Both the position numbers and the translations under genes were made by a program. From Opitutales bacterium (GTDB lineage Bacteria; Verrucomicrobiota; Verrucomicrobiia; Opitutales; Coraliomargaritaceae): DNA of 47,294 nucleotides. The stretch covers positions 1 through 47,294 of the forward strand of contig JBMYNR010000010.1 in assembly GCA_049598495.1 (NCBI GenBank), written 5' to 3'. Positions 4,004 to 14,970 of the stretch are shown here, in pieces (positions within the stretch are counted from its first letter, which is position 1; each line of letters starts with the position of its first letter). Below the pieces are notes generated by a model. That model was given only the letters and a program-made list of their open reading frames with translations, was not told the origin of the DNA and made no database searches.

Positions 4004-4596
4004 ACATCCCCCTCATCTTGACCAATAAAGATCGACCAGTATTTGACCATATACTGGGTCCCTGAAGAGACGGTCAACAAGGTCGCGATACAGAAGAATA
4101 TCAGGCCACCCAAGTGGAGCATCTCCCCAACTACCGTTGGCAGAAAATTCGGAAAGTCAGCCTGAACGGCCACCCCGAGAAGGAGCAGCACCGCCGAAAC
4201 AATTTGGGAAACCGTCTTGTGCTTACCCGATTTTTCTGCCGCCAGAACAATCCCCGAGCTCGCTGCCACCAGTCGCAAACCGGTAATCAAGAACTCGCGG
4301 CTAAGAATCAGGAGCAGCAGCGGCAGCGTCCACGCAGGAAGGACGCCCTTTGCCAGCAGGGCGATGAACAAACCCACCATAAAGACCTTATCGGTCAGTG
4401 CGTCCATGAGTTTCCCGAAACTGGAGACCAAGCCCTGCTTGCGCGCGTAATATCCGTCAGCCCAATCAGTGAGCGCCCCAATCACAAACAGCACGAAGGC
4501 CGCGCTACTTGCACCGACAACCGGTAAATACAGGAAGCCGACGATACCAAAGAGGATTGGTATGCGCGAAAGCGTTAGTAAATTCGGTAGATTCAC
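4000..4596 (-). CDS. pgsA: CDP-diacylglycerol--glycerol-3-phosphate 3-phosphatidyltransferase
   Basis: [13 protein letters not shown]-alcohol motif [10 protein letters not shown]...[25 protein letters not shown]. Confidence 0.95.
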
Positions 4597-4722
4597 GCTG
4601 CGCAGGCTGTCCCAGATACCCTGTGTCGGCTAGCCAAAAATTAGGAAAGTTGGCATGTGTTTTCGGCCTTGGGTCGAAAGGTTCCAATTGACGCCCTATA
4701 AAGCAGTTCCTTTTCTGCTTCA

Positions 4723-7389
4723 ATGCGTCACGCCGAGCTCGTTGCCAATATTCAGGCCTTAGTCATAAACACCCCCGATCAATCTGAATTCGTTTACGAG
4801 TTTCTGCGCGCCTACGGCACTCCAAATGCCTCCGTAGCGCGGCTGAAATCCGGCCAGATGAATCTCGCCAAGAGCGACGGCGAACTGCTGCTGAAAAAGA
4901 AGCTCTATTTCAAAGCGACTGAGGGTGACCTCTTCGCTGCCTTGGATGCCCTGAAATCCACCAAAGGCACGCGATCCAATGATCCACGCCTGCTCATGGT
5001 CACGGATTTCGATCAAATTCTGGCTTGGGACCGCAAGCTGGAAGACTCGCTCGATTGCAAGCTGGCCGAACTTGATAGCCACATCGATTTCTTTTACCCG
5101 CTTGCGGGCATGGAGAAGCAAAAGTTCTCCAACGAGAGCGTGGCCGATATCAAGGCCGCCGAGAAGATGGCCAAGCTCTTCGACGCGATCAAGGCGCACA
5201 ATGCCGAGTTCATCGAGCGCAACCCACACGCGATGAACGTCTTCCTCGCGCGCCTGCTCTTCTGCTTCTTTGCGGAAGACACCGGCATCTTCGCGGACAA
5301 CTCCGTGACGAATGCCATCGCCAACGAGACCGCAGCCGACGCCTCCGACCTGCACGACTTCTTCGTCAAACTCTTCGACCTGCTCGACCGCAAACCACGC
5401 GAAGGTCTGCACCAGCCATGGAGCGACTTTCCCTACGTCAATGGCGGCCTCTTCAAGGATCACTACTCGATCCCCGAGTTTTCCATGAAGGCACGGCGCA
5501 TGATGCTCGAGGCGGGCAGCCTCAGCTGGGCCGAGATCAATCCGGACATCTTCGGCTCCATGTTTCAAGCCGTCATCGATCCGGAAGAGCGTCACAACCT
5601 CGGCCAGCACTACACCTCCGTGACCAATATCATGAAGGTCATTGAGCCGCTCTTTCTTAATGACTTTCGCGAAGCACTCGAAAAAGCCTCCGGCCTACAG
5701 CGCGGGAAGGAGGCCGCGCTCCACCGCCTGCTCGACCGCATCTCTAGGGTCAAAATCTTCGACCCCGCCTGCGGCTCGGGCAACTTCCTTATCATCGCCT
5801 ACAAGGAGCTGCGCCGCTTGGAGATGGATATCTTCCGCGAGCTCCAGCGCGAAAGCGGCGAGCTCCCGCTCTCCCGTCTCAATGTGAGTCAGTTCTACGG
5901 CATCGAAATCGCCGACTTCGCCGCCGAGACCGCCGTGCTCGCCCTCTGGCTGGCCGAGCACCAGATGAACCTCGAATCAAAGCAAGTCTTCGGTCAGGCC
6001 CCCGACAACCTGCCCCTCAAAGAAGGCGCTCACATCGTTTGCGACAACGCCTGCCGCATCGACTGGGAAAGCGTCTGCCCGAAAGAAGACGGCGATGAAA
6101 TTTATATCTTGGGGAATCCGCCGTATTTGGGTAAAAGCGAACAGAGTAAGGCGCATAAGGCAGACATGGCACATGTCTTCGCAAGCATCAAAGGCTTCAA
6201 GAACCTAGACTACATTGCCTGCTGGTTTCTGAAGGCCGCGAAATACATAACATCTACTTCAATCAAAGCCGCTTTCGTCACGACCAACTCGATTTCGCAG
6301 GGCGAACAAGTTGCGCTTCTTTGGCCCCATATTTTGACGCGTGATTTAGAAATCGGATTTGCACACCTCTCGTTTAAGTGGACGAATAATGCCAAAGGAA
6401 ATGCAGGTGTCACATGTGCGATCATTGGTCTTAGGAAAATTTCCAACGTAAATAAGTTTATCTTCAAAGATGGTCTATCGAAACAGGTTGATACAATCAA
6501 TCCATACTTGTCTCCGGGGACGAATGTGATTGTGCACCGGCGCTCCAAGCCGATTGCCGACTTACCGGAAATGAGTTATGGAAGTAAACCCGTCGATGGT
6601 GGGCATTTAATTCTTTCCACGTCAGAAAAGGAATCTTTAGAAAACGAATTTCCGACGGCATCTCGTTTCATAAAGCGTTTCATCGGTTCGAGTGAATATA
6701 TTCGAGGCAATGTGAGATATTGCGTTTGGATTGATAACAAAGACTTGAGTATAGCCCTAGAGATACCGCCGATAAAGGCACGCATCGATGCCGTCCAAGA
6801 AATGCGACTAGCCAGCAAGAAAGCTGCGACTCAAGAAGATGCTAATCGCCCACACCAGTTCGGTGAACCTCGTTTTAAAAACTTGGACTCGATTATCGTC
6901 CCTGAGACCAGCTCTGAAAGAAGGGACTATTTGCCTGTGGGTTATATGGATGCAGACACAGTCATTTCAAATTCAGCCTATTGCATCACAAACGCGACCC
7001 CTAGCTCCTTCGGCCTCCTAACCTCCCGCATGCACATGACTTGGGTGCGCGCCGTGGCAGGTCGCTTGGAAGAACGGCTACGCTACTCCGCCGGGCTCTG
7101 CTACAACACCTTCCCCGTCCCGAATCTGAGCGAAGCCCAAAAGCATAACCTGACCGCGCACGTGATGGAGGTCCTGCAGCAGCGGGAGAATCATCCCGAA
7201 AAGACGATGGCCCAGCTCTACGACCCCGACAAGATGCCCGACGGCCTCCGCGCCGCCCACCAAGCCCTCGACCTCGCCGTCGATCAACTCTACCGCAAAC
7301 AAGCCTTCACCTCCGACGAAGAACGCCTCGAACACCTCTTCCAACGCTACGAAGCGATGATTGAACAAGAAAGGAACAAAAAACTATGA
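4723..7389 (+). CDS. MmeI-like / YeeA-family N6-adenine DNA methyltransferase with C-terminal target recognition domain
   Basis: 888 aa. FLARLLFCFFAEDTGIF, FPYVNGGLF, INPDIFGSMFQ, GQHYTS, motif I FDPACGSGNF, motif IV GNPPY, C-terminal RYS...YNTFP and LYDPDKMP..L..AH..LD..VD.LY. No clear PD-(D/E)xK motif seen in the N-terminus. Confidence 0.9.
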   Translation: MRHAELVANIQALVINTPDQSEFVYEFLRAYGTPNASVARLKSGQMNLAKSDGELLLKKKLYFKATEGDLFAALDALKSTKGTRSNDPRLLMVTDFDQILAWDRKLEDSLDCKLAELDSHIDFFYPLAGMEKQKFSNESVADIKAAEKMAKLFDAIKAHNAEFIERNPHAMNVFLARLLFCFFAEDTGIFADNSVTNAIANETAADASDLHDFFVKLFDLLDRKPREGLHQPWSDFPYVNGGLFKDHYSIPEFSMKARRMMLEAGSLSWAEINPDIFGSMFQAVIDPEERHNLGQHYTSVTNIMKVIEPLFLNDFREALEKASGLQRGKEAALHRLLDRISRVKIFDPACGSGNFLIIAYKELRRLEMDIFRELQRESGELPLSRLNVSQFYGIEIADFAAETAVLALWLAEHQMNLESKQVFGQAPDNLPLKEGAHIVCDNACRIDWESVCPKEDGDEIYILGNPPYLGKSEQSKAHKADMAHVFASIKGFKNLDYIACWFLKAAKYITSTSIKAAFVTTNSISQGEQVALLWPHILTRDLEIGFAHLSFKWTNNAKGNAGVTCAIIGLRKISNVNKFIFKDGLSKQVDTINPYLSPGTNVIVHRRSKPIADLPEMSYGSKPVDGGHLILSTSEKESLENEFPTASRFIKRFIGSSEYIRGNVRYCVWIDNKDLSIALEIPPIKARIDAVQEMRLASKKAATQEDANRPHQFGEPRFKNLDSIIVPETSSERRDYLPVGYMDADTVISNSAYCITNATPSSFGLLTSRMHMTWVRAVAGRLEERLRYSAGLCYNTFPVPNLSEAQKHNLTAHVMEVLQQRENHPEKTMAQLYDPDKMPDGLRAAHQALDLAVDQLYRKQAFTSDEERLEHLFQRYEAMIEQERNKKL

Positions 7390-8669
7390 GCCGATGGGAA
7401 GAACAATTTAACAGTCACCCACTGCATCAAACTCTTAAGGATGCAGAATCCTTGATAAGCACTGAAAAAGAGGACGTAACTGAAGACGAAATGCCAGAGA
7501 AGCGGCGGGCAAATAAACTGCTTAATGCATATACCCAGACCCTAGCACAATTAGACCCAGAACTAGTTCCTTTCAACAATCTGGATTCGATCAACAATCA
7601 AATACGTCACGCCAATATCTGGAATCAACTGACAGCCTATAACCAAAACGGAAATGCATCACATTTAAAGAACGCGAATGACCATCTCACTTCGACTCTA
7701 GCGCACCTTGCCCAACTATTATCTATCTCGAAATCCACAGAAGCCACAAACCCGCTTCGAGCACTCGAAAAGAGTTTGGATGAATTCGCTGCGGCGATCT
7801 CTTCAAAAAAGGACTCCCTCCAAGCGGAAATTTCGGGGCACAAAGGTGAACTAACTAAGCAGCAGAAAGAACTAACAAACCTCGCATCACTACTGCAGCA
7901 GAAAAAACAGGAAACTGACCAGATGCTTGCTGAGTGGCAGAAGCAGTTTTCAGAGGCACAGAATACGCGCAATGAGACCTTCTCAAGTGACCAAAAAGGC
8001 AGAACCGCGGAGTTTAACCAGTGGCGCAAAGATACCACGAAAGAAATAAAGGACGCATTCGACAATTTGCTTCAGCAAACTTCCGAGAGGATTTCAAAAA
8101 CTGAGTCTGACTTTGAAGATACTATCAATAATCATCTGGAAGATGCAGATGCAAAGCATAAGCGTATACTCGAACTTTACCAAATAACTGCTGCCGACAG
8201 CGTCGGAGCTGGCTATATCAAGAATGCCGACAATGAAAGGGAACAGGCTAATTTCTGGCGCTGGGCAACCATAACTTTTGTTGGGCTGACGGCAATCTGG
8301 ACTGGAGTTTCTTACTTCTTGGGTCCCCTTTCCGGTGATGAGCCTGGAACCGTTCTCTTGGGTAAAGTCATCAAGGCATTTTCTGTAACCGGTGTCCTTC
8401 TTTTCGGAGCTGTGTATTCAGCAAAACAATCTAATGCTCACCGGAACAACGAGCGGCGTAACCGACGCTTCGCGCTAGAAGTCAAAGCAATCGACCCATT
8501 TATTGCTTCTCTAGATGATGCAGATCAAAAGACCCTCAAGAAAGAGCTCAGTGAACGCTTATTTGGGCATCAAGATGGAGCCTCGGATAACGATAGTAAA
8601 GTTATCGAGGAACATGCGTTTAGCACTGTAGTTAAAGGTCTCATTGATGTTCTAAAAGCCAGCAAATAA
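7386..8669 (+). CDS. Hypothetical protein: long coiled-coil with two C-terminal transmembrane helices
   Basis: 427-aa ORF with ATGA overlap to the methylase stop. E/Q/K-rich helical region; hydrophobic segments WATITFVGLTAIWTGVSYF and VIKAFSVTGVLLFGAVYSA. Confidence 0.8.
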   Translation: MSRWEEQFNSHPLHQTLKDAESLISTEKEDVTEDEMPEKRRANKLLNAYTQTLAQLDPELVPFNNLDSINNQIRHANIWNQLTAYNQNGNASHLKNANDHLTSTLAHLAQLLSISKSTEATNPLRALEKSLDEFAAAISSKKDSLQAEISGHKGELTKQQKELTNLASLLQQKKQETDQMLAEWQKQFSEAQNTRNETFSSDQKGRTAEFNQWRKDTTKEIKDAFDNLLQQTSERISKTESDFEDTINNHLEDADAKHKRILELYQITAADSVGAGYIKNADNEREQANFWRWATITFVGLTAIWTGVSYFLGPLSGDEPGTVLLGKVIKAFSVTGVLLFGAVYSAKQSNAHRNNERRNRRFALEVKAIDPFIASLDDADQKTLKKELSERLFGHQDGASDNDSKVIEEHAFSTVVKGLIDVLKASK

Positions 8670-8672
8670 ACC

Positions 8673-8747
8673 ATGACCACCCACCTCCCGATCACCATAC
8701 CCGACATCCTGCACGGCAAGACCGTGGAGTGGGAGCGCATACTTTAA
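8673..8747 (+). pseudogene. 24-codon remnant resembling the N-terminus of Schlafen/AlbA_2-HATPase ('RecG-like') proteins
   Basis: Translates MTTHLPITIPDILHGKTVEWERIL*. Resembles, from memory, the LPINIxDLLHGxTVEWERLEFK family start, cut just before EFK. GC-rich codons compared with the preceding gene. Confidence 0.55.
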
Positions 8748-8750
8748 ACG

Positions 8751-9134
8751 ATGACGCGAGATATGGATTTAATTCGTGACCTCCTGCTATATGCGGAGGA
8801 ACATGATCGTTGGCCGTTGGATGGCTACGACATCGCTGCCGACACGGAAGAAATCGCACTCGATATTGGCGTGAACCTGATAGTGCTGTATCGCCACACG
8901 AAACTCTTGGAAGAAGCTGGCTTTGTCCGGGGCATCGACACGTCGACGCTCCGATCATACGGATGGGAATTTAAGGAAATCACCTGGGCTGGCTATGATT
9001 TCCTCGATGCAACACGGAGTCAGGAAGTCTGGGAGAAGGTTAAAAGCAAAGCTTTGAAAGCAGGCGGTTGGACGTTTTCCCTCCTCGTCGAAATGGGCAA
9101 AGAGGAACTCAAAAGGCGACTGCTCCCAGACTGA
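8751..9134 (+). CDS. DUF2513-family (winged-helix-like) protein
   Basis: M.RDMDLIRDLLL, YRHTKLL.EAGFV, ITWAGYDFLDATRSQEVWEKVK. Confidence 0.85.
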   Translation: MTRDMDLIRDLLLYAEEHDRWPLDGYDIAADTEEIALDIGVNLIVLYRHTKLLEEAGFVRGIDTSTLRSYGWEFKEITWAGYDFLDATRSQEVWEKVKSKALKAGGWTFSLLVEMGKEELKRRLLPD

Positions 9135-9201
9135 TCCTGATTAAGCTTGTCCCACTCGGTTTCCGCTTTCTCTTTGTCCAGCCTTCCATATACATAAATC
9201 A

Positions 9202-10116
9202 ATGAACACTGCCCCAAAGCCTAAAGCACCCACCTACATGCGTCAGCGGCTACTGCTTTTCTTTCTCGAAGCGGCAGATAGCACCCTGTCCAAGATGGAC
9301 TTACAGAAGCTGCTTTTTCTCTATCATCATGATGCAGATGCGGAGCATTATGCCTTTGTGCCCTTCCGTTTTGGTAGCTATTCCTTTTTGGCCTCCGATG
9401 ATTTAGATTTGATGGAAAAACGCGGCTGGGTGCAGGCAGAGGGCAAGCAGTTGGCGTTGGCGCAGGAAATCGACCGGGAGTCCTGGGCTAGAAGCAGCGA
9501 TGAACGCCGACAGGTCAAACGCTGGCTCTTTCGAAATCCGGAGCGTGGAGATGCGCTCATTGCAAAGGCTTATCGACGCTTTCCCTACTACGCTCTAAAA
9601 AGTGAAATGAAGGAGCGTGTGCTGACGAACGAGGAGTTAGAATCAGTCGATGAGCTATTGTCGGATCTGCAGCGCAAGAAGGAGCTTACTGTTTTTACCC
9701 TTGGCTACGAAGGAATACACTTTGAGACCTACTTGAATAAGCTTATCCGAAATCATGTGTCGATTCTCTGTGATGTGAGAAGGAATCCGCTAAGCCGCAA
9801 ATTCGGATTCTCCTCGAAAATGCTAGCGAGCGTCCTTCCAAAGCTGGGAATCGAATACGTGCATTTGCCGGAATTGGGAATCGCATCTGAGAAACGGCAG
9901 GAACTTAATTCGATGGCGGACTATGAGCGTTTATTTGACGGTTTCCGTAAAGAACTGCCGGGGCGCGTCGAAGGGCTAAACCGTCTAAAGTCGATTATTG
10001 AGCAAAAGAAGCGAGTGGCTCTCACTTGCTTCGAAGCCGAGCCTCATTGCTGCCATCGGCACTGCATTAGTGATTTACTCGAAGAGCAGATGGGCTACAC
10101 AGTAACGCATCTATGA
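9202..10116 (+). CDS. Fusion of an N-terminal wHTH (DUF4065/YwgA-like) domain and a C-terminal DUF488 domain
   Basis: N-terminus LQKLLFL...FVPFRFGSYS...DL..M...GWV. C-terminus FTLGYEG, DVRRNPLSRKFGFS, YVHLPELG and CFEAEPHCCHR (C-x-E-x5-CHR, 10027-10059). Confidence 0.82.
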   Translation: MNTAPKPKAPTYMRQRLLLFFLEAADSTLSKMDLQKLLFLYHHDADAEHYAFVPFRFGSYSFLASDDLDLMEKRGWVQAEGKQLALAQEIDRESWARSSDERRQVKRWLFRNPERGDALIAKAYRRFPYYALKSEMKERVLTNEELESVDELLSDLQRKKELTVFTLGYEGIHFETYLNKLIRNHVSILCDVRRNPLSRKFGFSSKMLASVLPKLGIEYVHLPELGIASEKRQELNSMADYERLFDGFRKELPGRVEGLNRLKSIIEQKKRVALTCFEAEPHCCHRHCISDLLEEQMGYTVTHL

Positions 10117-10949
10117 TAGAGCGAATACTGATCACGGTTAAGACCTATCCTACGCTCTCTGAAAAGTATTCAGAGCTAGTCTGCACGGCAGGCGTGAACG
10201 AAAAGGGCCAATGGCGACGCATCTACCCTGTAAAATTTCGCCAGCTGCAAGATGCCAGTCAGTATAAGAAGTTCCAATGGGTCGAAGCTGATATCGAAAA
10301 ATCGACTAGCGACAAACGTCCTGAAAGCTACAAGTTAGTGCGTCCTGACTGCCTGCAATTACTCGGAGACCCGATCTCGACGAGTGAGAAGTGGGCTGCA
10401 CGCAAGGATGCTTTCCACAATAAAGTTCCACTGGAGAGGGACATATCCAAGCTAATCGAGAATGCGCACGCAGACGTCTGTTCTCTCGCCCACTACCTGC
10501 CCGAAAACTATCTCAAATTTGTCGTCGAAGAAACGAGCCGAGAATGGAGCTCCGAGAAACTGGCTAAACTCGAAGCTCAGAAGCAACAGATGGATTTGTT
10601 CAAGGATGAGGCCACACTTGAGGAAGAATTCAAAGTGGTTGAGAAGTTACCGTATAAATTCTCGTATCAATTCAGCGATCCGAGTGGCAGAAAGCCAAAA
10701 CTCATGATTGAGGATTGGGAGCTTGGTGCACTCTATTTGAATTGCCTCCGAGATGCAAATGGGGACGAAGCGGTTGCAGTTCAAAAAGTCCGCGAGAAGT
10801 ATTGGGATGAATTTGTGATAAGCGGCAAATACGACCTGAGCTTGATTCTGGGAACCACCTATGAATATCACAACAAACGCGCCCCGAACCCGTATGTTAT
10901 AATCGGGGTCGTTCCAACACCTCGGGACGACCAACTTTCGCTGCTGTGA
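10113..10949 (+). CDS. Uncharacterised protein, translationally coupled to the DUF488 gene
   Basis: 278 aa, ATGA overlap. Motifs ITVKTYP, VCTAG, WRRIYP, DKRPESY, PYKFSYQF, IEDWELGALY. QMDLF (10587-10601) and C-terminal QLSLL (10932-10946). Confidence 0.8.
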   Translation: MIERILITVKTYPTLSEKYSELVCTAGVNEKGQWRRIYPVKFRQLQDASQYKKFQWVEADIEKSTSDKRPESYKLVRPDCLQLLGDPISTSEKWAARKDAFHNKVPLERDISKLIENAHADVCSLAHYLPENYLKFVVEETSREWSSEKLAKLEAQKQQMDLFKDEATLEEEFKVVEKLPYKFSYQFSDPSGRKPKLMIEDWELGALYLNCLRDANGDEAVAVQKVREKYWDEFVISGKYDLSLILGTTYEYHNKRAPNPYVIIGVVPTPRDDQLSLL

Positions 10950-10951
10950 GA

Positions 10952-10977
10952 AGGCACCAAGTATAGGCACCAAGTAT
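10952..10977 (+). repeat. Tandem 13-bp direct repeat AGGCACCAAGTAT x2
   Basis: Exact copies at 10952-10964 and 10965-10977. Confidence 0.85.
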
Positions 10978-11006
10978 GAAGCTTAGCATATTCCCCAAGA
11001 ACCAAA

Positions 11007-11055
11007 CAAGCGCTTCCGTTTCCGGAGAGCGCTTGCCGACCGGGAATTCCCAGTC
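11007..11055. promoter_or_regulatory. Stem-loop plus adjacent palindrome upstream of the helicase gene
   Basis: CAAGCGCT-TCCG-tttc-CGGA-g-AGCGCTTG (11007-11035) and GAC-c-GGGAATTCCC-a-GTC (11038-11055); no U-tract. Confidence 0.4.
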
Positions 11056-11104
11056 CACCCACACTGTTTAACATCTAGTCACTTCCGTCAAGAAACCATC
11101 GCCA

Positions 11105-13030
11105 ATGCCAAACCTCATCGAAGTCAACTACAGCCAGACTGGCCAGAGCACGAACACCGATGCACTCGGCATGCGGGAGATGCAGGCGCGGGTCTATGCG
11201 CAGCGGGATGCACAATATCTACTGGTCAAGGCACCGCCCGCCTCGGGCAAGTCGCGTGCGTTGATGTTTCTCGCACTGGATAAGATCCACGATCAAGGGC
11301 TGTCGAAAGTCATCGTTGCCGTGCCGGAACGCTCCATCGCCTCTTCTTTCGCGCCGACCCATCTCTCGGCCTACGGATTTCCCTACGACTGGGAGCTCGA
11401 CCCGCGCTACAACCTCTGCACCTCGGCCAGTGCCGAAAGCAAACGGCAACAGTTTACAAACTTTCTGCAGAGCGACTCAAGGGTTCTGCTCTGCACCCAC
11501 GCCACGTTACGCGGAGCCTTCAACGAGGTCGAAACGGAGTCGCTGAACGATGTGCTGCTGGCCATCGACGAGTTTCACCACGTTTCAGCCGATTCCGACA
11601 ACCAGCTCGGCGAGGTGCTGCGTGAGGTCATCGCCAAGTCCTCCGCCCATATCGTGGCGATGACAGGATCCTACTTTCGTGGCGACAGCGTGCCCGTGCT
11701 TGCCCCGGAAGACGAAGCGCTCTTCCGCAATGTCACCTACAACTACTACGAGCAGCTCAACGGCTACGAGAATTTGAAGTCGCTCGGCATCGGCTATCAC
11801 TTCTATCAAGGCAAATACCTCTCAGCGATTATGGAAGTGCTGGATACCGACAAGAAGACCATTCTCCACATCCCAAGCCCCAATGCCGGCGAATCGACTA
11901 AAGAAGGAAAATACAACGAAGTCGGAGCCATCCTCGATGCGATAGGAAAAGTGATCTACACCGATCCGGAGACGCGGATTATGACGGTGGAACGTAAGTC
12001 CGATGGCAAGCAGCTCAAAGTGGCCGACTTGGTCTGGGATGTAGCCGACGACCGCGACCGAGCCATCAACTACCTGCGAGACATTCGCAAGCCAGAGGAT
12101 ATGGATTTGATCATCGCGCTCGGCATGGCACAGGAAGGTTTCGACTGGCCCTACTGCGAGCACGCGCTGACCGTGGGCTATCGTGGCTCACTGACTCAAG
12201 TCGTTCAAATCATTGGCCGCTGCACGCGGGACAGCTCAAACAAAACACATGCGCAATTCACCAACCTGATCGCCCAGCCGGATGCAGCCGACGAAGAAGT
12301 CACCACCGCAGTGAATAACATGCTCAAGGCGATTACCTGTTCGCTCTTGATGGAGCAGGTGCTGGCTCCAAGTTTCAGATTTAAGGCGCACGTGGAAGAT
12401 GACGGCACAACACCGAATCCCGGTGAGTTGAAGATAAGGGGACTGAAAGAACCAAGCTCCGAGCGGGTCAAAGGTATCATCGAGGCTGACTTGAACGACC
12501 TAAAGGCCACCATTCTTCAGGATAAATCGATTCAGAAAACGATTGCAGGAGGCGTCGATCCGGAGGTCGTCAACCAAGTGCTGATCCCGAAGATCATTCA
12601 AAAGAAGTATCCCGACCTCGACGAACGCGCTGCCGAGGAGTTACGTCAACATGTGGTCGTGGGTTCGGTGCTCTCTGAAGCCGTGATGGAAGAAAGCGGC
12701 GATCGCCGCATTATTCGTATGGCCAACAAATTTGTGAACATTGATGAGCTGAGTATCGATCTAATCGACTCCATCAATCCCTTCCAGAAGGCCTTTGAAA
12801 TTCTGTCCAAGCAAGTGACCGCACCTGTGCTCAAAGCGATTATGGATTGCATAGAGACAAACCGACTTCAGATGACTGAGGAAGAAGCGCTACTTCTTTG
12901 GCCGAAGATCAAAAGCTACGTAAAGCAGAACGGTTGCGAACCGGCTCTCAACGCTTACGATGGTGAAGTGAAACGGATGGCTGAAGCGCTTCAGTTCCTT
13001 AAGCATCAGCGAAGACAGCAAGGTTTGTAA
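11105..13030 (+). CDS. YeeB-like SF2 (DExH) helicase/ATPase
   Basis: 641 aa. Q motif MREMQ, Walker A APPASGKS, Walker B IDEFHH, motif III MTGS, EGFDWP, motif VI QIIGRCTR. Confidence 0.9.
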   Translation: MPNLIEVNYSQTGQSTNTDALGMREMQARVYAQRDAQYLLVKAPPASGKSRALMFLALDKIHDQGLSKVIVAVPERSIASSFAPTHLSAYGFPYDWELDPRYNLCTSASAESKRQQFTNFLQSDSRVLLCTHATLRGAFNEVETESLNDVLLAIDEFHHVSADSDNQLGEVLREVIAKSSAHIVAMTGSYFRGDSVPVLAPEDEALFRNVTYNYYEQLNGYENLKSLGIGYHFYQGKYLSAIMEVLDTDKKTILHIPSPNAGESTKEGKYNEVGAILDAIGKVIYTDPETRIMTVERKSDGKQLKVADLVWDVADDRDRAINYLRDIRKPEDMDLIIALGMAQEGFDWPYCEHALTVGYRGSLTQVVQIIGRCTRDSSNKTHAQFTNLIAQPDAADEEVTTAVNNMLKAITCSLLMEQVLAPSFRFKAHVEDDGTTPNPGELKIRGLKEPSSERVKGIIEADLNDLKATILQDKSIQKTIAGGVDPEVVNQVLIPKIIQKKYPDLDERAAEELRQHVVVGSVLSEAVMEESGDRRIIRMANKFVNIDELSIDLIDSINPFQKAFEILSKQVTAPVLKAIMDCIETNRLQMTEEEALLLWPKIKSYVKQNGCEPALNAYDGEVKRMAEALQFLKHQRRQQGL

Positions 13031-13031
13031 A

Positions 13032-14192
13032 ATGGATAAGGAGACGCTTCAGAAACTGATCGAAGACGACGACCTGGGCTTGCTCGCGATCAGGACAACT
13101 CAAACCGCATCACAGAGTCCGGAAGAGCGTTTGATCGAAAAATTTTACAAGATCGCTGACTTCTACCGCTTGCATGAACGCGAACCCCGGAAAGACCCGA
13201 ACAACATGCAGGAAGCTCAACTAGCCATGTCGCTGGAGGGTATTCGTAATTCGCATGAGAGCATCGCCACACTTCAGGCACTAGATGAGTTCAAACTACT
13301 AGAGCCTCCTGTCCCGCCTGAGTCTTTAAAAGATGTCCTTGCAGACGATGATTTAGGTTTACTCAACGAAACCGAAGCAGCCGAGAGCATTTTTACACTC
13401 AAACATGTCCCGGAACGGATGGAACTGCCCGACTTTGTGGCACAGCGCGAAAAATGTGAGGACTTTGAAAACTACGAAGGACTATTCAAAAGCTGCCAGA
13501 ACGATCTTAGAAACGGCAAACGCCAACTACTTCAGTTTGCTAATGAGCAGCAGATCGAAGCCGGACAATTTTTCGTACTGAAGGGCATTATGGCCTACGT
13601 TGCAGAAGTGGGCGAAAAAGAAAACAAAGGCGGTAAGGTTAACGCACGCTTGCGCTGTATATTTGAGAATGGAACCGAGTCAGCCATGCTCCTCCGCTCA
13701 CTCTCAAGAGAGCTTTACAAGGATGGCCGTCGTGTGACCGAGCATGAAGACCGTCTAATGGATACAATGCAGGACGTCAGTATTGAGGATCAACAAACGG
13801 GATATATTTATGTTCTGCGCTCCCTTAGCAATCAAAAGGACATCTCCGACAAGCAAGACCTATACAAGATTGGATACAGTTCAGGCTCAGTAGAAGAACG
13901 AATAAAGAACGCAGCGGATGACCCAACTTATCTGATGGCTCCCGTTCGGATCTTAACGACATTTGAATGCTTCAACCTAAACCCGCAAAAACTAGAGCTC
14001 ATACTGCACAAGTTCTTTGCCGAAGCTTGTCTGGAGGTAGATGTCTTCGACAGCACTGGAAAGCGCCACTCACCACGAGAGTGGTTTATTGCCCCACTCC
14101 CAGTTGTCGAAGAAGCGATTCGGCTCACGCTAAGTGGCGAAATCATCGATTATTCTTTCGACAAGGACACGAATTTGATTCGTAGGAAGTGA
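13032..14192 (+). CDS. YeeC-like GIY-YIG (T5orf172/MUG113-type) nuclease-domain protein
   Basis: GYIYVLRS...LYKIGYS...VEERI, LE..LH..F, PREWF; repeated DDDLGLL; starts 1 nt after the helicase stop. Confidence 0.88.
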   Translation: MDKETLQKLIEDDDLGLLAIRTTQTASQSPEERLIEKFYKIADFYRLHEREPRKDPNNMQEAQLAMSLEGIRNSHESIATLQALDEFKLLEPPVPPESLKDVLADDDLGLLNETEAAESIFTLKHVPERMELPDFVAQREKCEDFENYEGLFKSCQNDLRNGKRQLLQFANEQQIEAGQFFVLKGIMAYVAEVGEKENKGGKVNARLRCIFENGTESAMLLRSLSRELYKDGRRVTEHEDRLMDTMQDVSIEDQQTGYIYVLRSLSNQKDISDKQDLYKIGYSSGSVEERIKNAADDPTYLMAPVRILTTFECFNLNPQKLELILHKFFAEACLEVDVFDSTGKRHSPREWFIAPLPVVEEAIRLTLSGEIIDYSFDKDTNLIRRK

Positions 14193-14220
14193 ACGGTCCG
14201 ATTCTCCGGAACAACCTCAA

Positions 14221-14970
14221 CTAGAGCACCCTTCTTAGAAACAGCTCACGATGAATTGTGGTGGCACCGTAGGTCTTGAGCGCGTCGCGGTGCTGTTGGG
14301 TGCCATAGCCTTTATGCTGGGCAAAACCGTATTTCGGATACTGTGCGTCGAGCTCTCGCATTCGCCGGTCGCGAACGACCTTCGCGGCGACACTTGCCAT
14401 AGCAATCGAGAGGGACTTCCCGTCCCCCTTCACCACGCCCTCATGCGCATACGGGAAGGGTTTCAAAGGACGCCCATCGACGAGAATTGATACATCGCAG
14501 GGAGCCTTGCCCTGACGCATTCGCCCATCTGTCTTCTGCGGACGGTTGGGGGCAACCGTCCCTACCTCAAATAGAGGGTCTTCGTAAACCGAAGGTAGTT
14601 TCCAATCGCTTGTTCGATCAGCAATCGTTTCGAGCGCCCGGCGCATGGCCAACCGCGTCGCACCCAAGATATTCAGCTCTCCTATCTCCTCAACCGAGCC
14701 CTCCGATACCGCAAAGTCGATCAAGCCATCGGCCTGCAAGTCCTCGAGAATTGCAAATTGCGCCTCACGGTTTTCTCCCGTGAGTTGTTTCGAGTCATTC
14801 ACCTGCCCGCAGATCTCCATTGCCGTATCCGAATCAAAGAGCCCGACAGATACAACGCAGGCAGCCGCGACCACTGGGCCAGCCAAACACCCCCGCCCTG
14901 CCTCATCCACGCCAATCAGGAACGCGGTCTGCGCCAGCCGATCCCTATCATATGCCTGCAATGCATTCAT
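14221..14970 (-). CDS. rnhB: Ribonuclease HII (with an in-frame REP-derived insert)
   Basis: GVDEAGRGCLAGPV, NDSKQL, NILGAT, LVDG, VKGD, MASVAAKV.RD, HKGYGT. Confidence 0.95.
   Translation of the reverse strand: MNALQAYDRDRLAQTAFLIGVDEAGRGCLAGPVVAAACVVSVGLFDSDTAMEICGQVNDSKQLTGENREAQFAILEDLQADGLIDFAVSEGSVEEIGELNILGATRLAMRRALETIADRTSDWKLPSVYEDPLFEVGTVAPNRPQKTDGRMRQGKAPCDVSILVDGRPLKPFPYAHEGVVKGDGKSLSIAMASVAAKVVRDRRMRELDAQYPKYGFAQHKGYGTQQHRDALKTYGATTIHRELFLRRVL
14497..14565 (-). repeat. GTAG-family REP/REPIN-like element inserted in frame in rnhB
   Basis: Minus strand reads GTAG-GGACGGTTG-cccc-CAACCGTCC-...-TCCCTGC. Perfect 9-bp stem; ends GTAGGGA/TCCCTGC are inverted with 1 mismatch; 69 bp = 23 codons. 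Confidence 0.75.

Follow-up and report, generated by a model that had tools for sequence, protein, structure and literature searches.

Two overlapping genes within a restriction-modification (RM) island of an Opitutales bacterium raise the question of whether they form a defense system not seen before, and on what substrate they might act. The island lies in the window, the 47,294-nucleotide stretch analyzed here (GenBank assembly GCA_049598495.1, contig JBMYNR010000010.1, positions 1 to 47,294). Gene A, the first gene of the original prediction, encodes a winged-helix domain fused to a DUF488 domain; gene B, its second gene, encodes a partner to which that prediction could assign no function. 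The two open reading frames (ORFs; Table 1) are coupled, as had been read from the letters, through a 4-nt ATGA overlap at 10113-10116.

The pair had been proposed as an undescribed defense system, which is not borne out. Gene A matches the PADLOC profile PDC-M19A (PDLC04505) with an E-value of 1.1e-95 (residues 12-303, profile positions 2-293 of 294), and gene B matches PDC-M19B (PDLC04508) with an E-value of 9.1e-98 (residues 3-277, profile positions 4-268 of 269); gene A also matches PDC-M45B/C. A full match to a described system is the outcome that the original prediction had named as counting against it, and the label 'undescribed' therefore falls. The window pair resembles PDC-M19 in every respect compared: both models are matched end to end, the genes adjoin as a cassette, and the cassette is embedded in a known type of defense operon. 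Nothing essential differs; an MmeI-like type IIG/helicase/GIY-YIG island serves as host here, and type III RM operons also house relatives. What defines a PDC set is its embedding in a BREX, DISARM or type I RM operon; 145 PDCs predicted in this way were offered for future tests (Payne et al., bioRxiv 10.1101/2024.01.29.577857). The sections of that preprint considered here give neither a fold nor a mechanism for PDC-M19; its supplementary tables, like the 2023 paper of Burroughs and Aravind, may annotate a dual-OB architecture. Among the papers searched, none tests PDC-M19 and none mentions the names pdcm19, PF04343, PF22557 or PDC-M45; judged by title or abstract, the DuOB and dual-OB literature holds nothing on the gene B family. 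By its sequence, the pair is a catalogued anti-phage candidate with a predicted defense role, not a new system. As for its function, the reading we prefer, at roughly even confidence, is that PDC-M19 is a mobile two-protein accessory that acts against invaders on replicating or gapped DNA, its chemistry and its defensive role both being inferred.

The two genes travel together. Loci were drawn from genomes carrying gene B (80 kept from 219 found) and from metagenomes carrying gene A (80 kept from 573 found). A gene A homologue lies immediately upstream of gene B in 75/80 genome loci, and in the remaining five gene B starts no more than ∼120 nt from a contig end, with the tail of gene A visible in two. 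Conversely, a gene B homologue follows gene A in 74/80 metagenome loci; the contig ends there in three, and gene A stands without gene B in three (L106, L119 and L134). Loci on viral contigs contain both genes in 11/11 cases, both being broken in one. The coupling of A and B is far above chance. Gene B relatives number 5,887 at E ≤ 0.001 among 6,478 candidates (1,953 among 50% representatives), and their distribution is patchy: the gene B model matches 17 of 301 genomes of the class. It also matches the control genomes of Synechococcus elongatus and Methanosarcina acetivorans, and 23 plasmid records and 7 phage records carry homologues. A promoter and terminator scan of 8600-11200 returned chance-level counts (2 versus 2.2; 3 versus 3.2). 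Directly past the gene B stop codon, 10952-10977 is an exact 13-nt tandem duplication.

Sequence analysis places gene A firmly in the DUF488 family. Its motifs are LQKLLFL and FVPFRFGSYS in the head and CFEAEPHCCHR in the enzyme domain, together with GYEG, DVR and the C-x-E-x5-CHR loop. Of its 71 full-length homologues, 63 were aligned with gene A and the others, near-duplicates for the most part, set aside; Q35, K36, F52, P54, G58, S61, G168-Y-E170, D191-V-R193, C276, E278 and C284-H-R286 are invariant across the 64 sequences. Pfam DUF488 (PF04343) matches residues 175-293 with an E-value of 7e-26 (91.6 bits, cut-off 22.2) and is matched in 64/64 gene A homologues. The cysteine enzyme with an intact loop, as first read, is supported. 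The predicted structure (pLDDT 94.8) comprises two domains, of which residues 160-304 align to phosphatases of the protein tyrosine phosphatase (PTP) fold in the VIA structure search (Z 7.7-8.7, root-mean-square deviation (rmsd) 2.6-3.4); an alignment-based search of PDB sequences returned nothing below E 0.05. On this model, the DUF488 domain is predicted to have a PTP/rhodanese fold with an active-site cysteine and may act on phosphate. DUF488 has been placed in the rhodanese-phosphatase superfamily, reportedly by Burroughs and Aravind in 2023, who are said to have predicted DNA-end processing for it. Enzymes of this superfamily strip terminal phosphates by means of a cysteine (PMC9503650).

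The head of gene A is predicted to be a winged-helix domain, but the Panacea-type antitoxin or regulator role first ascribed to it is weakened. Residues 11-152 find their best match in DarG's C-terminal domain (7yk3; VIA Z 11.2, rmsd 4.3, 139 aligned residues), which also ranks first in Foldseek (E 7e-4); the next winged helix reaches Z 9.8 in VIA. At the sequence level the NCBIfam DarG match is weak (E 0.006, score 15.8 against a cut-off of 250). No Panacea (PF13274) match was found for the window gene A, and SocA/Panacea matches in its homologues are weak and confined to 11/64 (best E 4e-4). The Panacea domain carries a GPV motif (PMC8832971), which in the gene A family is replaced by G-[SC]-YS with G58 and S61 invariant. 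Separately, an acidic DNA-mimic head was considered and is not suggested by the net charge (mean +4), a crude test.

These likenesses bear on the possibility that A and B form a toxin-antitoxin or abortive-infection pair of the SocAB or DarTG kind, in which B would poison replication through the clamp and single-stranded DNA (ssDNA), the head of A would restrain B or A would reverse its effect, and phage would release B. The DarG C-terminal domain, the best structural match of the head, sequesters the toxin DarT in E. coli (PMC7003065), and SocB provides a precedent for a replication block through a clamp-binding motif (PMC9690074). The weak Panacea matches, a gene order and overlap that fit an antitoxin-first operon, and the three metagenome loci with gene A alone point the same way. 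Compared with DarTG, however, gene A lacks a macrodomain or NADAR domain and has DUF488 instead, while its partner is predicted to be an OB protein rather than DarT. No island gene matches the DarT ADP-ribosyltransferase and no DarT neighbor was seen; a DarT search of the bacterium's own genome was also negative, but its controls were silent too, which makes it uninformative. In SocAB and Panacea (DUF4065) systems, too, a related winged-helix head lies upstream of a partner that has a clamp-binding motif; gene A differs in that its head is fused to an enzyme, scores below the Pfam cut-off, lacks GPV and is dispensable across the family.

This dispensability is seen in the plasmid and phage records, of which 9 plasmid records and 1 phage record were opened. 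On plasmids of Pseudomonas, Rhizobium, Pseudochrobactrum, Burkholderia, Streptomyces and Arthrobacter and in Gordonia phage Nymphadora, a stand-alone DUF488 gene lies tail to tail with gene B, encoding 150-167 residues (230 in Streptomyces). A Calothrix plasmid carries a 140-residue DUF488 gene after gene B on the same strand, and the DUF488 partner on a Saccharolobus plasmid bears a ParB head. C276 is retained in the head-less and ParB-headed copies. The invariable core is gene B plus the DUF488 catalytic domain, and the winged-helix head is swappable. This constancy speaks for a common reaction and against the view that a Panacea-type antitoxin defines the unit, and the absence or replacement of the head weakens the antitoxin reading. 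In seven plasmid genera and Nymphadora, gene B persists with a DUF488 that lacks the head and is frequently encoded on the opposite strand. On pSOG2 it occurs with no DUF488 gene in the flanks (3 kb upstream, and 2.1 kb downstream to the end of the record). A toxin-antitoxin pair is, on balance, distinctly unlikely.

Several copies deserve mention in their own right. In Nymphadora, the gene B homologue (gene 43) overlaps by 1 nt the gene that precedes it, which is annotated as an immunity repressor. This placement resembles that of genes 43 and 44 of phage CarolAnn, proven defense genes cotranscribed with their repressor; in the passages of that paper considered here, Nymphadora figures as an attacking phage only (PMC6426606). 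Nymphadora gene 42 (L208:5813-6265), the partner of gene 43, bears the annotation 'HipA toxin' although its product belongs to DUF488 (Pfam E 1e-29). The gene B proteins L208:4968-5822, L209:3001-3867 and L210:3001-3861, from actinobacterial-phage and archaeal sources, contain C-x4-C-x2-H, a possible zinc site that the window protein lacks. In one genome locus, where the headed gene A is already upstream, gene B also faces another, stand-alone DUF488 gene tail to tail (L008:6841-7464).

Gene B, for which no function could initially be named, is now placed as a probable tandem OB-fold protein related to DuOB. The motifs first noted in it (VKTYP, CTAG, WRRIYP and IEDWE) are real and conserved: across gene B and 67 of its 76 homologues, Y12, P13, S16, E21, C24-T-A-G27, R36, P39, D67, R69, E71 and L197-E203 are invariant. 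In a more diverse set of 112 sequences (111 of 150 gene B representatives of 250-310 residues, plus the query), C24 is kept in 97%. Pfam and NCBIfam return no match, and the gene B alignment finds nothing below E 0.05 among PDB sequences. Structurally, the predicted model (pLDDT 90.4) recovers multi-OB nucleic-acid binders in Foldseek, namely CST, RPA, telomere end-binding protein (TEBP) and HIN proteins (best E 2e-4). In VIA, residues 1-86 align to the OB folds of PriB, RPA and single-stranded DNA-binding protein (SSB; best Z 8.5, rmsd 2.7, 79 aligned residues) and residues 1-271 to HIN domains (Z 7.0, rmsd 6.8). Baculovirus LEF-3 proteins, which have an SSB role, rank first in a library of viral structures. 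The scores are individually middling but in agreement, and the model indicates that gene B is a tandem OB-fold protein. C24, R36, D67, R69 and E71 fall in the first OB domain and D201-W-E203 in the second. In OB folds, strands 2-3 and loop 4-5 form the usual ligand face; by topology, E21, C24, R36, D67, R69 and E71 are predicted to lie on these elements of the first domain.

Profile comparison gives this fold a family relation. HHalign of gene B against 55 DuOB proteins yields a probability of 55%, which rises to 79% with the diverse alignment (E 1.6e-5, residues 16-141; controls 0.4% and 0.9%), and a DuOB cluster of the Atlas, at 0.83, offers a further lead. A global HHalign of gene B against DuOB gave no usable alignment (probability 0.3%), so that homology of the second OB domain rests on fold and motif order. 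The window gene B does not match Pfam DuOB (PF22557), none of the 68 listed sequences (0/68) reaches its cut-off, and distant copies from Nymphadora (gp43) and pSOG2 score 18.6-18.7 bits against a cut-off of 27 (best E 0.002). With the alignment limited to residues 16-141 and the Pfam score below cut-off, gene B is termed a relative of DuOB and not a member. The arrangement itself recalls the DUF488 plus DuOB pairs, including PDC-M45, in which a DUF488 enzyme adjoins a double-OB protein that begins with the pattern C-x-AG...W-x-R-x-P (L082). Gene B differs in being ∼55 residues longer, in scoring below the Pfam cut-off and in its clamp motifs, which are absent from DuOB tails (0/120).

These clamp motifs, proposed at first reading, are supported by counts above background. 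Gene B has two clamp-binding-like peptides (Table 1): QLSLL lies at the C-terminus, and QMDLF in a predicted flexible insertion, where pLDDT is down to 66-78 (residues 151-180). Beta-clamp motifs have the consensus QL(S/D)LF, and a PIP box reads Qxx[I/L]xxFF (PMC9690074). Of the 112 diverse sequences, 78% retain Q159, 79% L162 and 86% F163. Two search patterns of our own making, a loose and a strict one, were applied. The loose pattern occurs internally in 75/112 segments versus 53/2,150 random windows, and in the last 12 residues of 42/111 diverse sequences and 103/120 close homologues versus 11/430 tails of flanking ORFs; DuOB tails and gene A tails give 0/120 and 0/64. Two Sulfolobales plasmid copies show QATLDQYI and QATLEQYI at the columns of the internal motif, with PIP-like spacing and one aromatic residue. 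This PIP-like form in archaeal copies is suggestive but comes from two related sequences; among 150 unnamed gene B representatives, no PIP-like motif stands at the clamp positions, and four matches lie elsewhere.

An RNA-directed or signaling role is considered here, since OB folds bind RNA too and tRNA-synthetase OB domains are among the VIA matches. In this alternative the pair would serve signaling or RNA repair during conflict, acting on the ends of RNA or on a small nucleotide or ADP-ribose derivative; among the enzymes of ADP-ribose conflict systems are rhodanese-phosphatases, which cleave terminal phosphates off sugars (PMC9503650). The clamp motifs, the RM neighbors and the ParB and winged-helix heads indicate DNA instead, and we regard this alternative as very improbable.

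Genomic neighborhood analysis bears out the expected enrichment beside defense genes. The nearest ORF of at least 150 residues on each side was taken for 76 of the 80 genome loci (four near-duplicates skipped), with RM families called at E ≤ 1e-8; the control consisted of 115 of 119 ORFs from 15 evenly spaced 12-kb stretches of genomes G294 and G023. RM-family matches account for 28/125 immediate neighbors (22/76 loci) versus 0/115 control ORFs, with a Fisher p of 2e-9 that overstates the enrichment, the loci being related and the control coming from two genomes. This count leaves out one DEAD/ResIII helicase (L048) and takes in one Res gene on the opposite strand (L044). The pair lies within a type I or III RM operon in 10/76 loci, between hsdR and hsdS in five (L036, L052, L056, L060 and L067) and between mod and res in five (L002, L003, L004, L005 and L012). 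Over 181 loci, the top five neighbor clusters are HsdS (17), HsdM (15), HsdR (14), Res (13) and Mod (12). No dedicated third partner emerges among clusters present in at least 3 of the 181 loci. Three such clusters are unnamed: two were scanned and have no Pfam match, and the third overlaps gene B on the other strand. A family of ∼145-155 residues without a Pfam match occurs near the pair at L026:6850-7281, L029:6812-7282, L063 and L066:4648-5091, and L100, directly adjoining it in the four genome loci.

The window island follows the same pattern, and its identification as a defense-type island holds. It extends over ∼4.65-14.2 kb, and the corresponding site is empty in genomes G307 and G204, where pgsA directly adjoins rnhB. 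GC content is 0.47-0.51 over 6-11 kb and 13-14 kb versus ∼0.55 in the flanks, with 0.52-0.59 at 5-6 kb and 11-13 kb. The scaffold of MmeI-like enzyme, helicase and T5orf172 gene recurs in relatives with a variable middle: the slot is empty in two G305 loci and holds an AlbA_2 protein in G325, a HEPN protein with A and B in G294 and an AAA protein in G319 (where the T5orf172 gene was not seen), while in G096 it is occupied by a 525-residue reverse transcriptase along with DUF3800 and a RecG-C/Fic piece. A fixed scaffold with a variable middle marks the A-B pair as exchangeable cargo in a conflict operon. In its own right, the reverse transcriptase and DUF3800 combination in the G096 slot (L184:4661-8321) may represent a reverse-transcriptase-based defense cargo.

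The chief competitor is a protective repair module, similar to SRAP/HMCES with a 3'-phosphatase, that would use the clamp tether, an ssDNA binder with a reactive cysteine and an end-cleaning phosphatase to shield or mend carrier DNA at abasic sites, at 3'-phosphate ends or after damage by its own restriction enzyme or rival nucleases. Repair proteins typically carry clamp motifs (PMC9690074), plasmids and temperate phages harbor the pair, and a defense neighbor is missing from many loci. HMCES, which crosslinks abasic sites in ssDNA during replication, offers a precedent for the conserved cysteine of gene B. SRAP chemistry requires an N-terminal cysteine, however, whereas C24 is internal. The patchy spread and the insertion between RM subunits, or in a slot otherwise held by HEPN, reverse transcriptase, AlbA_2 or AAA genes, fit conflict genes better, and the neighbors that recur most include no repair gene. 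A repair function is thus rather unlikely, and the evidence on linkage, folds, motifs and RM neighbors supports the earlier view of a self-contained two-gene unit directed at nucleic acid in a defense context.

If PDC-M19 is such an anti-invader accessory, its mechanism can be sketched as follows. By prediction and conservation, protein B combines two ssDNA-type OB domains with two clamp-binding-like peptides. These peptides would tether it to the sliding clamp, where it could meet ssDNA, nicks and ends at phage or plasmid forks or in DNA freshly cut by a neighboring restriction enzyme. The polar cluster of the first OB domain (E21, C24, R36, D67, R69 and E71) would grip or chemically engage the strand, and the cysteine loop of the predicted DUF488 fold would remove or transfer a terminal phosphate on the DNA end, so that the invader DNA could be neither ligated nor extended. 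The winged-helix head would be an exchangeable DNA- or partner-binding add-on outside the core, and the unit, inserted as cargo into RM operons, would also work without one. A full-length complex prediction of A and B scored 0.00, its controls not being folded, and is evidence neither way. A bolder version, which we hold to be decidedly improbable, describes a clamp-riding immune effector of bacteria and archaea whose clamp peptide has switched with the host clamp (QxxLF to PIP-like), whose OB cysteine captures ssDNA or ends, and whose DUF488 enzyme strips end phosphates so that restriction cuts or fork breaks in the invader stay unrepaired. If true, RM systems would possess an end-poisoning partner activity and DUF488 a first function; end-spoiling at the clamp would also explain the frequent placement of the pair between RM subunits.

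Several observations weigh against the anti-invader reading. Immediate RM neighbors are absent from 54/76 loci, many of which lie amid housekeeping genes, and embedding marks the pair as mobile cargo, a behavior shared by repair genes of mobile elements. The DUF488 domain scores about equally with tetrapyrrole methylase N-domains (Z 8.7-9.7) and phosphatases (Z 8.3-8.7), and its C...R spacing differs from the classical CX5R. The OB-fold Z-scores of gene B are middling (at most 8.5) and mostly cover the first domain, and E21 is absent from the two archaeal copies. The loose clamp pattern is permissive; the strict one retains 31/112 internal segments and 21/111 tails, with backgrounds of 11/2,150 windows and 3/430 tails. 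Support comes from prediction, conservation and context, and activity, binding and phenotype are inferred. The value of the analysis lies in a sharper test of a widespread candidate that is not new as a catalogue entry: the anatomy points to ssDNA or to DNA ends at the clamp as the class of substrate, and to residues to mutate. Tractable homologues are available in a Gordonia temperate phage, on plasmids and among the Synechococcus elongatus and Methanosarcina acetivorans matches.

Table 1. Genes and motifs of the island in window coordinates (aa, amino acids)
Feature	Position	Strand	Basis or description
MmeI-like type IIG RM enzyme, first island gene (scaffold)	4723-7389	+	PADLOC REase_MTase_IIG, 1039.7 bits; five MmeI Pfam domains
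Coiled-coil protein, 427 aa, hydrophobic C-terminal segments (cargo)	7386-8669	+	No confident family
DUF2513 protein (cargo)	8751-9134	+	Pfam PF10711, E 1.4e-19
Gene A (PDC-M19A)	9202-10116	+	304 aa; winged-helix domain ∼11-152, DUF488 domain ∼160-304
Gene B (PDC-M19B)	10113-10949	+	278 aa; predicted tandem OB-fold protein, probable distant DuOB relative
Internal clamp-binding-like motif QMDLF	10587-10601	+	Gene B residues 159-163, predicted flexible insertion
C-terminal clamp-binding-like motif QLSLL	10932-10946	+	Gene B residues 274-278
SF2 helicase (scaffold)	11105-13030	+	Pfam DEAD, ResIII, Helicase_C; order after MmeI-like gene kept in relatives
T5orf172/MUG113 (GIY-YIG-like) protein, last island gene (scaffold)	13032-14192	+	Pfam PF13455, PF10544

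The remaining cargo and spacers of the island hint at its history. The coiled-coil gene overlaps the MmeI-like gene by 4 nt, has weak defense-family matches only, and was not seen in nine stretches mapped from relatives. No convincing family of cassette-type repeats was found around the cargo in 4500-14400. The spacer at 8673-8747 contains a 24-codon mini-ORF whose DNA matches the start of an AlbA_2 ORF in G315, and the spacer at ∼11003-11057 has a stretch that shares 95% identity with the beginning of a RecG-C/Fic-like ORF in G096. Both resemble remnants of an AlbA_2/RecG-C/Fic-like gene, which the cargo now in place may have displaced. Beyond the island, rnhB (14221-14970) stands out at ∼14480-14620: its RNase HII has 249 residues, compared with 231 in G307 and G204, and is matched in two stretches, and 14539-14567 recurs at G000:C1:82676-82704, which possibly reflects an in-frame repeat insertion.

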